Assembly (NCBI GenBank): GCA_026394495.1 | Contig: JAPKYE010000072.1 | Coordinates: forward strand, 1,394 to 65,393 | Origin: Methanobacteriota archaeon | GTDB taxonomy: Archaea > Thermoplasmatota > E2 > DHVEG-1 | DNA: 64,000 nt | Direction: 5' to 3' | Part shown: piece after piece, positions 9,518-41,369 of the stretch | Position numbering within the stretch: the stretch's first letter is position 1 | Layout of the letters: each line of letters opens with the position of its first letter | Translations under genes and position numbers: made by a program | Notes under the pieces: model-generated | Databases searched by the model: none | What the model saw: the letters and a program-made list of their open reading frames with translations, nothing else | What the model was told of the DNA's origin: nothing

Positions 9518-10897
9518 GTGATTTCATCAGTCACCCTTACGGGTGATGCGATGACGGATAATGAAACAACCCAATCAGATAAATTTTATTCAAACAATAA
9601 TTCTTTTAAAGTTGTTCATGCTTCTGGTATTACTTCTCAAAATCAAGAAGTGGGAGTGTGTAACCAAGAATGCGAACCTATTTTAGACAAAATAAGCCAG
9701 AATCATATCGAACATTTAAGCCCTATTGTTGGGAAGGAAATGGTGAAACTGGATTATGACTTAAAAAAAACTTTAGATGTTGAAATATTTAGAAACCCCT
9801 ATGTACTTGAACCAAAGGACTATGAGACGTTACAAGATTTTTTCACGGCACTCGAACATTGGTGGATTTTTCGATATAGAAAAAACCCCAGTACCATTAA
9901 AGACAGAATCCGGTACGCAAAAAATATGTCGAAACATCCAGTTTATCCTATCGACTGGCTGAAGCTTAACCCGAATCAAGTAATAGCTTATCTGGAACAC
10001 AGAGAATATCAAGATTACGGCAATACTAGAGGAAAACATCAAATACGCAATGACTGGAAAACAATAAAAACTATCGCGAAAGCATTTGGAATCGATGCTG
10101 AACTTTGGGGATATATCCCACCATGCCCACCAAAAGCCAAGGTACGAAAAATACCATCACCTGACGAAGTACATGCTATTATCCATCATAAATACTGTAA
10201 GGACAAATACACTAAAACTTTGTATCAGTATATACTCATGCATGGTTTTTCTATTGGATGGAGACCTGCTGAGCTTGTCATCCAGAAAGTAAGCGATGTT
10301 CACTATGAAGACGGGTACTTAATCATCACTGAGACGAAGAAAGGCGACCAGATGCGACAGATTTTCCCTGAGAAACGTATTTTATCAGGGGAACGATGTA
10401 AAAGCTTCAAAAATTATATTGAGGACTGGCGACCAAAGGTTTTGAATCAATATAGCGGTGACTTTCTCTATTTACAGGCTAACGGGAGACCGTTTACGGT
10501 GAATTATCTGAGAAAACTACTTACCCCTGAAGTTAAAAAGGTTTGGAGTAGTTTTTCTCTCTATACGATGCGTCATTGGTGTGCAATAGCTCGATTAATC
10601 CAAGGCTTCATTGATAACGGTACATGGGATAAGACTGACGTTCAAGATTGGCTAGGACATGAACGAGTAAGTACAACTGACGACTATACTAAGTATGCTA
10701 AAAAGTACTATTTGATTGCCAAGTTTGATTGGATAAAATCCATCCTCAAATTTCACACAAAAAAATGTGAGAGGGGAAAATGGAAAAAATTCGATAAATT
10801 GGCAAAAAAGGGCTTTATTAAACCAGTTAACAGGAGAAAAAAGGAATGCTCCCATCGGGATTCGAACCCGAGTCTTCGCCTCGAAAGGGCGAAATGA
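9518..10897 (+). CDS. int: Tyrosine recombinase/integrase
   Basis: GWRPAE, YTMRH, WLGH...TTDDY catalytic motifs; 3' end runs across att into the antisense strand of tRNA-Glu; true start may be further downstream. Confidence 0.92.
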   Translation: MISSVTLTGDAMTDNETTQSDKFYSNNNSFKVVHASGITSQNQEVGVCNQECEPILDKISQNHIEHLSPIVGKEMVKLDYDLKKTLDVEIFRNPYVLEPKDYETLQDFFTALEHWWIFRYRKNPSTIKDRIRYAKNMSKHPVYPIDWLKLNPNQVIAYLEHREYQDYGNTRGKHQIRNDWKTIKTIAKAFGIDAELWGYIPPCPPKAKVRKIPSPDEVHAIIHHKYCKDKYTKTLYQYILMHGFSIGWRPAELVIQKVSDVHYEDGYLIITETKKGDQMRQIFPEKRILSGERCKSFKNYIEDWRPKVLNQYSGDFLYLQANGRPFTVNYLRKLLTPEVKKVWSSFSLYTMRHWCAIARLIQGFIDNGTWDKTDVQDWLGHERVSTTDDYTKYAKKYYLIAKFDWIKSILKFHTKKCERGKWKKFDKLAKKGFIKPVNRRKKECSHRDSNPSLRLERAK

Positions 10898-10919
10898 TTG
10901 GCCGCTACACTATAGGAGC
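10847..10919 (-). tRNA. tRNA-Glu(TTC)
   Basis: GCTCCTA/TGGGAGC acceptor stem, TCGCC-CTTTCGA-GGCGA anticodon arm, GGTTCGAATCC T-arm. Confidence 0.97.
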
Positions 10920-11247
10920 AAATTAGTTTTTATTGTTCTAAGGTTAACCCAACAATACGGAATTCCTTATTAAAATTGCGCCTGGACAATCATTGAACAA
11001 AAAATCCGGTGATATTGTGTGAAATTTGTAGAAATAATGGTTGTTAAAAAATTGTTGTTGATTGAAAAGAAGAGTTAGGCAGGAGAAATTGGAGGTGGAA
11101 AAAATACAAAAATTGGAGCTGTTTTTTTCCGTGGTGACAGATACATTTTCTCCTGCCTATGTTCTACTGTGTATTTGTTGATTTAAATACTTTTCGCTTG
11201 TTTTGTGGGTAAAAACAACTAAAAATAGGAGAAAACCTAATTGAAAG

Positions 11248-11320
11248 TAGCCCCGAGCGGATTCGAACCGCTGTCACTGGCTCCAAAGGCCGGTATGATT
11301 GACCACTACACCACGGGGCT
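11248..11320 (-). tRNA. tRNA-Gln(TTG)
   Basis: AGCCCCG/CGGGGCT acceptor stem, anticodon loop CTTTGGA, GGTTCGAATCC. Confidence 0.97.
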
Positions 11321-11592
11321 AAAGTATTATTGGTCAGTGCAGAAGGTGGATACCAATTTTCCTTTAAATGATTTTCTAGGATTATCATACAATAAACAAA
11401 GAGCCGTAAAAAAGAAAAACAGAGAATACATGTCCATAAGGGATTTCAGTGCGAAAATGTTTTTATTGTAGCAAAGAAGGAAACTACGTTGTCGATGAAA
11501 ACAACGGTATGTGGTTTCTCTGCAAAACACATTATCAGCTTTTTTTAGCAAAACATGGAAAAACAAAAAAGAAACGAAAAGAGGAAGAATAA

Positions 11593-12075
11593 ATGATCAA
11601 CGAAGAACTTTTATTAGATGTTTCTCAGCAGCTTAAAATAAAAGGTCTCACTCTAGCTACAGCAGAATCCTGCACCGGTGGTCTGCTTGCCCATATCCTC
11701 ACAAATATATCTGGAAGTTCTGAATATTTTGATAGAGGCGTAATATCCTACAGCAACAACGCAAAACAAGAACTGCTTGATGTCTCTGAAAACACACTCA
11801 AACGACATGGCGCTGTAAGCGAACAAACTGCACAAGAGATGGCAACAGGGATAAAAAACAGATCACAGGCAGACATCGGTATTGCAATCACTGGCATCGC
11901 AGGACCAAACGGCGGCACAAAGGATAAACCAGTTGGACTTGTTTACATAGCTATTGCAACATCTAAAAATATTTTAGTAAAAAAATTTGTTTTTTCAGGT
12001 GATAGACTTCAAATAAAAGAAAACACTTGCAACGCAGCTCTTGTTTTTTTATTAGAATGCCTCAATCAAAAATAA
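11593..12075 (+). CDS. pncC: CinA C-terminal domain / NMN amidohydrolase
   Basis: AESCTGG, SGSS, HGAVS, ITGIAGP motifs. Confidence 0.9.
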   Translation: MINEELLLDVSQQLKIKGLTLATAESCTGGLLAHILTNISGSSEYFDRGVISYSNNAKQELLDVSENTLKRHGAVSEQTAQEMATGIKNRSQADIGIAITGIAGPNGGTKDKPVGLVYIAIATSKNILVKKFVFSGDRLQIKENTCNAALVFLLECLNQK

Positions 12076-12095
12076 AATAGGAGGAAATAATCCCT

Positions 12096-39849: not shown

Positions 39850-39992
39850 GAAAAATCGGCGTTTACTTCAGAGTTCGGGTCCGTCTTTATAAAAAATACT
39901 GTTTAACAGAAGAAAAAGAGTGTTGGAGCGCCGTCCGCCGTATGCAAACTTAGGGTATAGTTTATACCACCAAAAATAGGGAGAAAAAGGGA
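39837..39992. repeat. Cassette junction: right arm, core and left arm (attP-like)
   Basis: Composite of both repeat arms around the tRNA-Asn 12-bp core. Confidence 0.9.
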
Positions 39993-39993
39993 A

Positions 39994-41103
39994 TCATATT
40001 TGAGGAACCGTTTTGGTAGTACAATGTATAGCACCACCTTGTTTGATTATCGAATTACAATTTATACCCCGCATCTCATATTCAGGCATTAATTGTTGAT
40101 AAATAGAAATCGCTTCAGCGTCTTCAACAGTATTATATTGCGGGATGAGAACGACTTTTTTATATGTTCCATTTATTATTAATGAGTTAGCATACGTCCA
40201 GACTGTTTGTCTATTTGAATTAGGATCTCGCAACATAGGAATTCTGACAACGTTGTAACCATGTTCTATAAATATTTTAGAATTATTTTCTAATATGTTG
40301 TAATTTATATCCTTTTGATCCTTGTATTGACCAACAAGAACCGTTTTATCATCCAGGAATTTTGCAAACATATCAAGGTGCCCCGATCCATCATTTATTT
40401 GCGATTCTAACACAATAAGTTCATCTAATCCTAAGGATTTTTTCAAATTATCTATAATTTTTTCTTTTGAATGATAGGGATTATCTTGAAAAATTCTATC
40501 AGTTGCAAAACCGACACCATGCCCATCAGTCATATAATTTCCACCTTGGATGGAAACAACAAAATTCGTATCAAACCTATAATCAATATGGTATCGAATG
40601 CCATAGAATGTTGGAAAAAAATTATCTAGAAACCTCCAGAGTCCATAGATATCGTATTTAAAGTCCACAATTGAGAGATGGTTATCCTCTTCGATAAAAA
40701 ACGAGCCGTAGTCAACAATCCAGATTGAATCTGTTGGTATCAACGTAAATGTAATATTTGTAAGAGGAACATTATTTGCCCGTAATTCTGATAAGACATG
40801 ATTTTTAATTATTTGATTATTTACAACGATGTTTACTGAAGTAGAATTCTCTGTCTCCTTTGTAATATTGATAAAATAAGATTCAACGATTCTATCTAAC
40901 GATTTCCACCATTTAGGCCAAGTAAGGATTAATTCTTTTACAGATTCAAACTCAGCAACAGAACGTATATTCTGAGATATATAAGAAGATGAAGGGTGTG
41001 GGGGATTGATCGTTGAAATACAATTAACAGAAGGGGGCGCAAGAATAAATACAACTGTTAATAATCCAATTATTGTCCCAAACTTATTCATAATCACACC
41101 CAA
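39994..41103 (-). CDS. Secreted agmatine/peptidylarginine deiminase (PPAD family)
   Basis: Signal peptide; AEFE, W..DYG, GGN, GHLD, TYAN, GGAIHC. Confidence 0.9.
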   Translation of the reverse strand: MGVIMNKFGTIIGLLTVVFILAPPSVNCISTINPPHPSSSYISQNIRSVAEFESVKELILTWPKWWKSLDRIVESYFINITKETENSTSVNIVVNNQIIKNHVLSELRANNVPLTNITFTLIPTDSIWIVDYGSFFIEEDNHLSIVDFKYDIYGLWRFLDNFFPTFYGIRYHIDYRFDTNFVVSIQGGNYMTDGHGVGFATDRIFQDNPYHSKEKIIDNLKKSLGLDELIVLESQINDGSGHLDMFAKFLDDKTVLVGQYKDQKDINYNILENNSKIFIEHGYNVVRIPMLRDPNSNRQTVWTYANSLIINGTYKKVVLIPQYNTVEDAEAISIYQQLMPEYEMRGINCNSIIKQGGAIHCTTKTVPQI

Positions 41104-41204
41104 TAATATATAGTTAGTTATATTTTAAATTTCTTGTGGCTGTTGAAAAATTTTTGGGTTGATGGATTAAGGGATCTGAACATCATTTTATTTATAAAAT
41201 ACTG

Positions 41205-41308
41205 ATGAGATAAATACGAAAAATCGGCGTTTACCTCAGAGTTCGAGTCCGTCTTTATAAAAAATATTGTTTAACAGAAGAAAAAAAGGTCCAAGACGCC
41301 GTCCGCCG
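41205..41308. repeat. Cassette junction: right arm plus core (tRNA 3' end)
   Basis: 77/81 match to 39837-39917; same 92-bp spacing to the core. Confidence 0.9.
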
Positions 41309-41369
41309 GACTCGAACCAGCGACCGTTCGGTTAACAGCCGAATGCTCTACCAACTGAGCTAGGACGGC
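41297..41369 (-). tRNA. tRNA-Asn(GTT)
   Basis: GCCGTCC/GGACGGC acceptor stem, TTCGG-CTGTTAA-CCGAA, GGTTCGAGTCC. Confidence 0.97.

Follow-up and report, generated by a model that had tools for sequence, protein, structure and literature searches.

Integrase-less gene cassettes stacked at a tRNA-Asn gene of a DHVEG-1 archaeon and their probable movement in trans

How do gene cassettes that code for no recombinase come to be stacked at the end of a tRNA gene, and whose enzyme moves them? The question is raised by a 64-kb stretch of DNA from an uncultured Methanobacteriota archaeon of the DHVEG-1 group (Thermoplasmatota in the GTDB lineage; contig JAPKYE010000072.1, positions 1,394 to 65,393; hereafter the window), which lies within a 2.2-Mb assembly of 141 contigs. 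Two small units (37077-41296) adjoin a tRNA-Asn gene in this window, and a 4.5-kb integrase element, here called the Glu element, occupies a tRNA-Glu gene further to the left. A first-pass annotation had noticed that the ends of the units resemble those of the Glu element and had proposed that the cassettes derive from, or are served by, the same family of integrases. We consider it rather probable that the units are cassettes comparable to cis-mobilizable elements (CIMEs), integrase-less and flanked by attachment (att) sites, whose arms carry a short sequence named Box B and which are moved in trans. The box at the cassette ends is also found in the docking ends of a particular local set of integrase elements, so that the cassettes are probably moved by a borrowed enzyme. 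It is a distinctly more tentative proposal that this helper is specifically the Box B clade to which the Glu integrase of the window belongs.

Anatomy and cargo of the tRNA-Asn cassettes

The window holds three tRNA genes, tRNA-Glu(UUC), tRNA-Gln and tRNA-Asn(GUU), all on the minus strand. The 12-nt 3' end of tRNA-Asn, CGCCGTCCGCCG, is present in three copies (at 37079, 39929 and 41297), and a 15-nt version of the same 3' end gives four matches with up to three mismatches, versus 0.06 expected. These core copies delimit cassette 1 (37077-39926) and cassette 2 (39927-41296), which are stacked at the 3' end of the tRNA gene. The left arms of the two cassettes (66 nt) are 91% identical and their right arms (97 nt; hereafter X) 90% identical. 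The array reads as follows:

37077-37142, plus strand: left arm of cassette 1 (66 nt; 91% identity with the repeat copy at 39927-39992), in which 37079-37090 is a core copy (CGCCGTCCGCCG)
37412-38770, plus strand: cargo of cassette 1, glycosyltransferase of the GT28 C-terminal/UDPGT type (PF04101, E 2.5e-12)
38797-39849, minus strand: cargo of cassette 1, UbiA-family prenyltransferase (PF01040, E 9e-24)
39824-39920, plus strand: right arm X of cassette 1, with a T-arm-like box at 39873-39883 and Box B at 39905-39916; 97-nt repeat, 90% identical to 41192-41288
39927-39992, plus strand: left arm of cassette 2, with a core copy at 39929-39940
39994-41103, minus strand: cargo of cassette 2, PAD_porph protein of the agmatine/peptidyl-arginine deiminase family (PF04371, E 3.8e-50)
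41192-41288, plus strand: right arm X of cassette 2, with a T-arm-like box at 41241-41251 and Box B at 41273-41284
41295-41370, minus strand: tRNA-Asn(GUU), anchor of the cassette array, with the core at 41297-41308

X has four parts: a box that resembles a T-arm, a stretch rich in A, Box B (CAACAGGAGAAAA) and a spacer of ~8 nt that leads up to the core. The T-arm-like box GTTCGAGTCCG (41241-41251) is a perfect inverted copy of the T-arm of tRNA-Asn (41307-41317), with three matches versus 0.01 expected. The left arm of the window type is composed of the core, an AAYGCGAAC-like sequence, the palindrome AACYTNARGTTC and AACTTATMCC. Where the two cassettes meet, X, core and left arm are joined and an attP-like site is rebuilt. 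In the probable source run, a single Logan contig spans 36000-41356 colinearly.

None of the open reading frames (ORFs) of at least 50 aa in 37077-41296 codes for a recombinase, the three long ones being those of the glycosyltransferase, the UbiA-family protein and the PAD-family protein. No integrase is found between 11000 and 43000 either, the nearest being that of the Glu element, 30 kb off, and neither Asn cassette arm has a further copy elsewhere in the same genome.

The G+C content is 27-34% at 20000-41000 of the window, versus 36-43% on either side. The stretch to the left of cassette 1, with radical SAM, MarR/TrmB-like and membrane ORFs, perhaps belongs to an older portion of the island; additional core copies or X-like arms were looked for in it and not found. 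One of its ORFs (29356-30015) contains a tandem repeat with a period of 45 nt at 29584-29993 (5 copies, 107-nt register, 64-75% identical).

The Glu element, its integrase clade and Box B

The Glu element (6358-10861) is bounded by an exact 17-bp repeat, AATGCTCCCATCGGGAT, at 6358-6374 and 10845-10861 (two matches versus 0 expected). Its features, and those of the adjoining tRNA genes, are:

6358-6374, plus strand: left copy of the att core, the displaced 3' end of tRNA-Glu; exact 17-nt repeat
6384-6395, minus strand: inverted Box B (AACTGGAGAAAA) of the left arm, 9 nt from the core; one-mismatch match
6665-8044, plus strand: 459-aa ORF, candidate rolling-circle replication protein; no Pfam or PHROG match
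8177-9202, plus strand: 341-aa ORF of no known family; Pfam and PHROG gave no match
9518-10897, plus strand: tyrosine integrase of 459 aa (PF00589, phrog_1); its last 52 nt are antisense of tRNA-Glu
10829-10840, plus strand: Box B of the right arm, within the integrase frame, where it encodes NRRK
10846-10920, minus strand: tRNA-Glu(UUC), the gene targeted by the element; 10845-10861 is the right core copy
11247-11320, minus strand: tRNA-Gln

The integrase matches the PF00589 catalytic-domain profile over residues 216-395 (42.3 bits, cutoff 27.1) and the phrog_1 integrases (E 1.7e-16), with a weak match to XerA of P. abyssi (4a8e, E 1.8e-4); candidates for the catalytic residues (R, K, H, R, H/W, Y) were read directly from its sequence. 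SSV-type (type I, suicidal) integrases, as presented in PMC7253208 and in passages of PMC8371274, likewise have their attachment core within the reading frame. By contrast with them, the gene of the Glu integrase is not split on integration: it is a single 459-aa frame whose homologues align to residue 458 and whose core is found only at the 3' tip. As this core lies in the last ~17 codons, integration exchanges the tail alone and the gene remains whole. The upstream neighbour of the integrase gene is the 341-aa ORF, at a distance of 315 nt; in SNJ2-type elements, according to the sections of PMC5861418 that concern them, the integrase gene shares a transcript with two small accessory genes that integration requires. 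For the 459-aa ORF at 6665-8044, 28 of 30 ESM Atlas feature matches are to REP_ORF2-G2P (best score 0.94), a candidate assignment that serves as a lead only. Neither this ORF nor the 341-aa one has homologues in 10 related integrase elements.

The right ends quoted in the first-pass annotation are exact: the Glu element reads ...ctttattaaaccagttaacaggagaaaaaagg before the core AATGCTCCCATCGGGAT and the Asn cassette ...ctttataaaaaatattgtttaacagaagaaaaaaagg before tRNA-Asn, and the translations given for them, NRRKKECSHRDSN and NRRKKGPRRRPPDSN, are correct as well, their DSN part being trivial because it is antisense of the tRNA T-loop. The piece common to these ends is short. It is the 12-mer AACAG[GA]AGAAAA, our Box B, at 10829, 39905 and 41273, a few bases from the tRNA end and preceded by a loose CTTTAT..AAA in both the Glu and the Asn right ends. 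The left-end motif that had been proposed alongside, ATGYAWACC, does exist as ATGTATACC (6373) and ATGCAAACC (37092), but cassette 2 reads ATGCAAACT, and the left arms of related cassettes have AAYGCGAAC, GACTTTAAC, AACTCTAAC or GGTTCTACC at this place, so that it is not a conserved motif. ATGYAWACC has five occurrences in the window versus 2.3 expected, a number reached in 5 of 100 shuffles; when aligned by tRNA position, it is largely a degenerate copy of the T-loop complement. It had been predicted that the end motifs would be conserved in the att arms of integrase homologues and less common at uninvaded tRNA genes; this holds for Box B at the right end, as detailed below, but not for the left-end motif.

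Homologues of the Glu integrase were detected at E<=1e-20 in 67 of 108 genomes, all incomplete, of the archaeon's family (hereafter the family). The genome of the window itself has eight matches, located at tRNA-Glu, tRNA-Arg(CCU), tRNA-Pro(UGG), tRNA-Arg(UCG) and tRNA-Val(GAC), plus fragments on contig C5, and not every frame runs into its tRNA gene. A convergent tRNA gene lies at the 3' end of the integrase gene in 24 of the 30 best loci (Arg 10, Glu 8, Val 3, Pro 2, Ala 1) and in 17 of 20 further loci (Glu, Arg, Ala, Met, Val and Pro). In a FastTree phylogeny of 34 integrases, from which rows shorter than 300 aa and the C120 fragment had been dropped, the window integrase belongs to a clade of 20 rows with 97% Shimodaira-Hasegawa-like support. 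In most members of this clade the integrase frame extends 39-52 nt into the tRNA gene, and Box B lies in frame, where it encodes NNRS/NRR of the conserved tail ENGLKSK..T.VS.GNNRS. X keeps Box B without any reading frame, which implies that the box is conserved as DNA. The left ends of 10 related integrase elements show no tRNA-end repeat of at least 11 nt within ~6 kb, and their left arms are therefore not comparable; only the Glu element and two other clade members (L069 and L073) give left arms, the first with the inverted Box B listed above, the two others with looser inverted versions.

When Box B is scored as the 8-mer AACAGGAG with up to one mismatch, in either orientation and within 45 nt of the tRNA gene, it is present in 14 of the 16 tRNA-linked members of the clade versus 1 of 11 integrases outside it, that one on a long branch. 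Judged from these sequences, Box B is a hallmark of the att right arms in the clade of the window integrase. In the genome of the window, the exact 8-mer accompanies two of five integrase-linked tRNA genes versus one of 36 others (background 0.2% per 45-nt window), the single exception being a tRNA-Phe gene on contig C68 that is itself suspect. We also fetched 30 tRNA-Glu genes from 86 matching genomes as a control. All six that adjoin an integrase gene have the box with up to one mismatch, and 16 of the 24 others lack it. Among the eight integrase-free genes that have it, five (L150, L160, L170, L171 and L172) show X-like A-rich arms, and the four of these with enough readable flank also carry a tRNA-Glu-like T-arm box; in sequence, these five loci look like Glu cassettes.

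Some further boxes are recorded here as observations in their own right. The tRNA-Phe(GAA) gene of C68 (1434-1507) has a counterpart on C5 (22133-22208), with 73-74 nt identical and differing downstream sequence; the C68 copy has an exact Box B (TTTCTCCTGTTGAA, tRNA sense), the C5 copy has integrase fragments 3-7 kb away, and the two contigs might represent two strains, one of which has an insertion that the other lacks. The gap between tRNA-Glu and tRNA-Gln is 326 nt (10921-11246) in the window versus 10-15 nt in three related genomes (L071, L072 and L098). It contains a Box B-like AATAGGAGAAAA at 11224, 12 nt before the 3' end of tRNA-Gln, no direct repeat was seen in it, and it might be what is left of a small insertion beside the tRNA-Gln gene. 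Finally, a repeat of ~42 nt that ends in Box B, GCTGGGTGTAGGCCGTAAGCCTCTTTGCAACAGGAGAAAA, has three copies in the same genome (C42:26944, C127:2934 and C127:674).

Spread of the X arms and turnover of their cargo

Used as a DNA query, the right arm was recovered at tRNA-Asn in another genus (G018) and at a tRNA-less joint in G025, and a sequence model of X plus core then matched 41 of the 108 family genomes at E<=0.01. We collected 26 X arms at 23 loci (22 fetched plus the window) in 20 genomes: 13 are placed directly at tRNA-Asn, seven are joined to a left arm of the window type and six to other left arms. An exact-pattern scan added 16 X arms in 14 metagenome contigs, none of which has a family integrase; since the pattern required Box B, these 16 arms are unusable for gauging the conservation of the box. 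A pattern scan of viral contigs gave three matches, all of them GC-rich and unrelated.

To the right of the tRNA gene, the genes are syntenic in three groups of genomes, whereas to the left of X they are almost all singletons. The recognisable ones code for NosD/beta-helix, PKD and CBM96 proteins, peptidases of the A4, C1 and S8 families, UbiA proteins, glycosyltransferases and a phosphofructokinase; the cargo of the cassette pool consists mostly of secreted or surface proteins and envelope enzymes. In one metagenome, two contigs have in common an arm of 183 nt with 99.5% identity next to unrelated cargo, one of them running into the tRNA gene and the other into a further element; a third metagenome contig has a mini-insert of 86 nt between X-core and tRNA. 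Taken together, these cases reveal a stock of arms whose cargo can be exchanged, along with differences at the core that are of recent date; they are silent on the enzyme. X-like arms are present also at tRNA-Glu and near tRNA-Thr, again without an integrase. At the tRNA-Thr locus (L064, G089:C11, 10046-10275), the order is X-like arm, diverged copy of the 3' end of tRNA-Thr(CGU), mini-unit of ~100 nt and real tRNA-Thr, which places the same arm design at a third tRNA.

We rejected X as a promoter of the cargo, since the adjacent genes have no consistent direction, 13 of them facing away from X and 10 facing it. One locus with a tRNA-Asn gene (L049, G115:C15) is 98.4-98.6% identical to two others (L111 and L116), with a difference of ~9 kb on the 5' side of the tRNA gene, away from the cassettes. 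At the joints of two further loci (L051 and L056, in G130 and G092), X is followed by a second type of left arm with TTCTCGAAGGGATTT. Inverted, this sequence gives AAATCCCTTCGAGAA, the motif in the right arms of integrases that do not belong to the Box B clade (L085, L096 and, in the genome of the window, C21 and C44). From this inverse relation, the integrases outside the Box B clade seem to have an inverted-repeat docking box of their own and to land at tRNA-Asn as well.

Probable movement in trans, its rivals and known parallels

In the mechanism that we favour, site-specific recombination would have stacked the two cassettes within the final 12 nt of tRNA-Asn (3' strands of acceptor stem and T-stem), with the crossover inside the 12-nt core. 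Integrases of the Box B clade would bind the element through Box B and the target through the T-arm of the tRNA gene, and sequence identity would be required only in the short crossover core. The cassettes might thus be inserted, excised or reshuffled in trans at any tRNA gene that matches their core. In its moves between tRNA-Glu and tRNA-Arg, the clade has kept its arm, which suggests that it is the arm, and not the core, that the enzyme recognises; an enzyme of this kind could act on cassettes with an Asn core.

Several observations weigh against this mechanism, most of them bearing on the enzyme. None of the 41 tRNA-linked family integrase loci has tRNA-Asn as its target, and the paralogue at tRNA-Asn that the first-pass annotation had suggested looking for is absent from the eight integrase matches of the genome. 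Next to the 42 X arms, within fetched flanks of up to 10 kb, no family integrase was found except in G018 and L066. In G018, a truncated family integrase ends inside a core copy, directly to the left of a cassette at tRNA-Asn, but this enzyme lies outside the Box B clade, lacks Box B and has a right-end motif of the TTTTCTCCGAGAAG type; in L066, a distant integrase of 404 aa stands to the right of a joint. The idea that the same integrase family produced or serves the cassettes is therefore upheld by their att-type arms, by the Box B of the window integrase's clade and by the family integrase of G018, and is weakened by the lack of integrases at tRNA-Asn in the surveyed loci and by the position of the G018 enzyme in the phylogeny.

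Other adverse points concern the box and the arms. Box B is short and A-rich, with 131 copies of AACAGGAG and 29 of the 12-mer in the 2.2-Mb genome, some of which precede start codons like ribosome-binding sites. With one mismatch allowed, it accompanies three of five integrase-linked tRNA genes of this genome, and tRNA-Asn, and also 5 of 36 others (background 3.65%). Only 17 of the 26 X arms from genomes have it with up to one mismatch to the 8-mer (count from the listing). Read in the tRNA sense it is CCTTTTTTTCTTCTG, which includes a T-run and might be a tRNA terminator. When the Glu arms are scored with a profile built from the Asn arms, the match is not significant alone (E 1.6 for the right arm and 0.92 for the left arm inverted, 6401-6380; E 0.9-1.6 overall), although these arms are two of the top three profile matches outside the three Asn sites in the window. 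The arm pairs are only 90% alike, which indicates that the insertion is not very recent, and in several genomes with X at tRNA-Asn a left end was not found within 7-10 kb. Assembled contigs, which cannot show rare forms or excision, have no alternative joints at the cassette borders. On a rough reading, ~6 of 16 genomes with strong X arms have a clade integrase versus roughly a quarter of all genomes, a comparison that is uninformative because the genomes are incomplete and related.

Alternatively, as the first-pass annotation had suggested, X might be the degenerate remains of the 3' end of an integrase gene whose frame formerly extended into tRNA-Asn, a reading which would be compatible with movement in trans and which we regard as a doubtful yet attractive idea, attractive because the right arm of the clade is the end of the integrase gene. 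The frames of most clade members that run 39-52 nt into the tRNA gene, and the Box B that encodes NNRS/NRR of their tail, speak for it, as does a tblastn match (E 0.001) of the tail peptide of L074 to two identical copies of one X arm (L055 and L115). This E value was obtained with a 14-kb database and 12 queries, with the composition correction off. Moreover, all three frames of X are interrupted by stops, and the sequence upstream of X showed no trace of the conserved DWIxxILK block. Full-length integrases gave no tblastn match next to X at E<=1e-4, X is not recovered with a DNA profile built from 12 integrase 3' ends (best E 0.98), and the integrase ends lack the T-arm-like box and the spacing of X.

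The cassettes could also be inert scars, that is, formerly autonomous elements that lost their integrase, with arms alike by descent and Box B serving a need of the tRNA gene that precedes it (a T-run terminator followed by CTCC). We find this unlikely, although a review of archaeal recombinases, in the passages that deal with integrase-less integrated elements, attributes them to gene loss (PMC8371274), and the T-run of CCTTTTTTTCTTCTG, the one-mismatch boxes behind 5 of 36 other tRNA genes and the cassette arms, alike at only 90%, all agree with it. Against this reading, X is conserved in at least seven genera with different cargo each time, and the 183-nt arms of a single metagenome, nearly identical, stand beside unrelated cargo. 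Box B also occurs in both orientations and in left arms, lacks a T-run in most clade members, and is missing from the 16 of 24 integrase-free tRNA-Glu genes mentioned above.

It is very improbable that X is simply a native, vertically inherited trailer of tRNA-Asn, copied into cassettes by capture of host flanks (imprecise excision) or by homologous recombination and silent on the recombinase, for, although 13 of the 26 X arms adjoin tRNA-Asn directly, several without a left end within 7-10 kb, and a joint of X, core and left arm directly follows a purL-like housekeeping gene (AIRS and FGAR-AT Pfam matches) in genus g26, the leftmost joints of the window (37077) and of L063 (1287) have no X on their left, as expected if X arrives with the cassette, the second tRNA-Asn of the same genome (C50) lacks X, 67 of the 108 genomes, incomplete as they are, give no X match, and X-like arms that share this build are also found at tRNA-Glu and in the vicinity of tRNA-Thr.

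Movement in trans by a borrowed integrase has its closest parallels in bacteria. Streptococcal CIMEs and tandem accretion at the sites of integrative and conjugative elements and of integrative and mobilizable elements, as treated in parts of PMC5704250 and PMC5357655, also involve recombinase-less units flanked by attL and attR, arranged in tandem at one gene end and presumed to be moved by the integrase of a related element. Like CIMEs, the Asn cassettes are flanked by core copies and conserved left and right arms and have no recombination gene of their own; as for a related autonomous element, only Box B is shared with the integrase clade, and the 42 X arms and 41 tRNA-linked integrase loci yielded no integrase element that combines X with the left arm of the cassettes. 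They differ from the streptococcal CIMEs in their archaeal host, in having neither a conjugation module nor a detected autonomous element with the same pair of arms, in arms that are conserved across genera while the cargo changes, and in the use of one arm design at several tRNAs.

Archaeal elements are known to integrate at tRNA 3' ends, sometimes in tandem at one locus and sometimes without an integrase (PMC8371274, in its passages on integration sites). Whereas those passages treat integrase-less elements as decayed whole elements, the units described here measure 1.4-2.9 kb, carry one or two genes and have an arm pair common to many genomes. The ssrA islands of Dehalococcoides (PMC3146451) and the tycheposons (bioRxiv 10.1101/2020.12.28.424599) resemble our arrays, in the portions of these works that bear on the matter, by repeated insertion at the end of a small-RNA gene and by rows of islands between 3'-end copies, but are reported with integrases of their own close by, whereas most arrays here have none in the fetched flanks. 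In word searches of the open-access literature, which are no proof of absence, we found no description of a family of conserved-arm cassettes in archaea; within the texts reached by these searches, the bacterial concept of CIMEs and accretion and general statements on tandem or integrase-less archaeal elements are already described.

Alternatively, although more speculative, the family might possess a tRNA-anchored system of gene capture that is somewhat integron-like. A pool of cassettes would carry a two-part docking module, and one clade of integrases, located on small plasmid-like elements such as the 4.5-kb Glu element, would read the module and not the core, loading and shuffling cassettes at tRNA-Asn, tRNA-Glu and tRNA-Thr. 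With similar reserve, the module can be envisaged as the T-arm-like box plus Box B on one side and the degenerate T-loop plus the palindrome on the other, the core being exchangeable. Mobile integrons likewise present, at a fixed chromosomal place, a row of promoterless-looking cassettes, mostly of one gene, that vary in cargo and are each equipped with a conserved recombination site. A genuine integron was rejected, as the array has no adjacent integrase or attI platform, its site is a tRNA 3' end, and the gene adjacent to X has mixed orientation (13 minus, 10 plus). Hairpin sites of the attC type were rejected as well, since DNA folds of the attR and of the joint give z values of -1.27 and +0.80, with no hairpin signal.

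To these known systems, our analysis adds a sequence link between the arm of a cassette and one clade of integrases, and the presence of the same arm design at several tRNAs. The genome of the window offers a testable pair, an intact integrase element (6358-10861) and two cassettes that share its box. If the arms are indeed read in trans, these archaea would stock accessory genes, such as those for surface proteins, secreted proteases and envelope enzymes, at their tRNA genes without the cost of a recombinase for each package.

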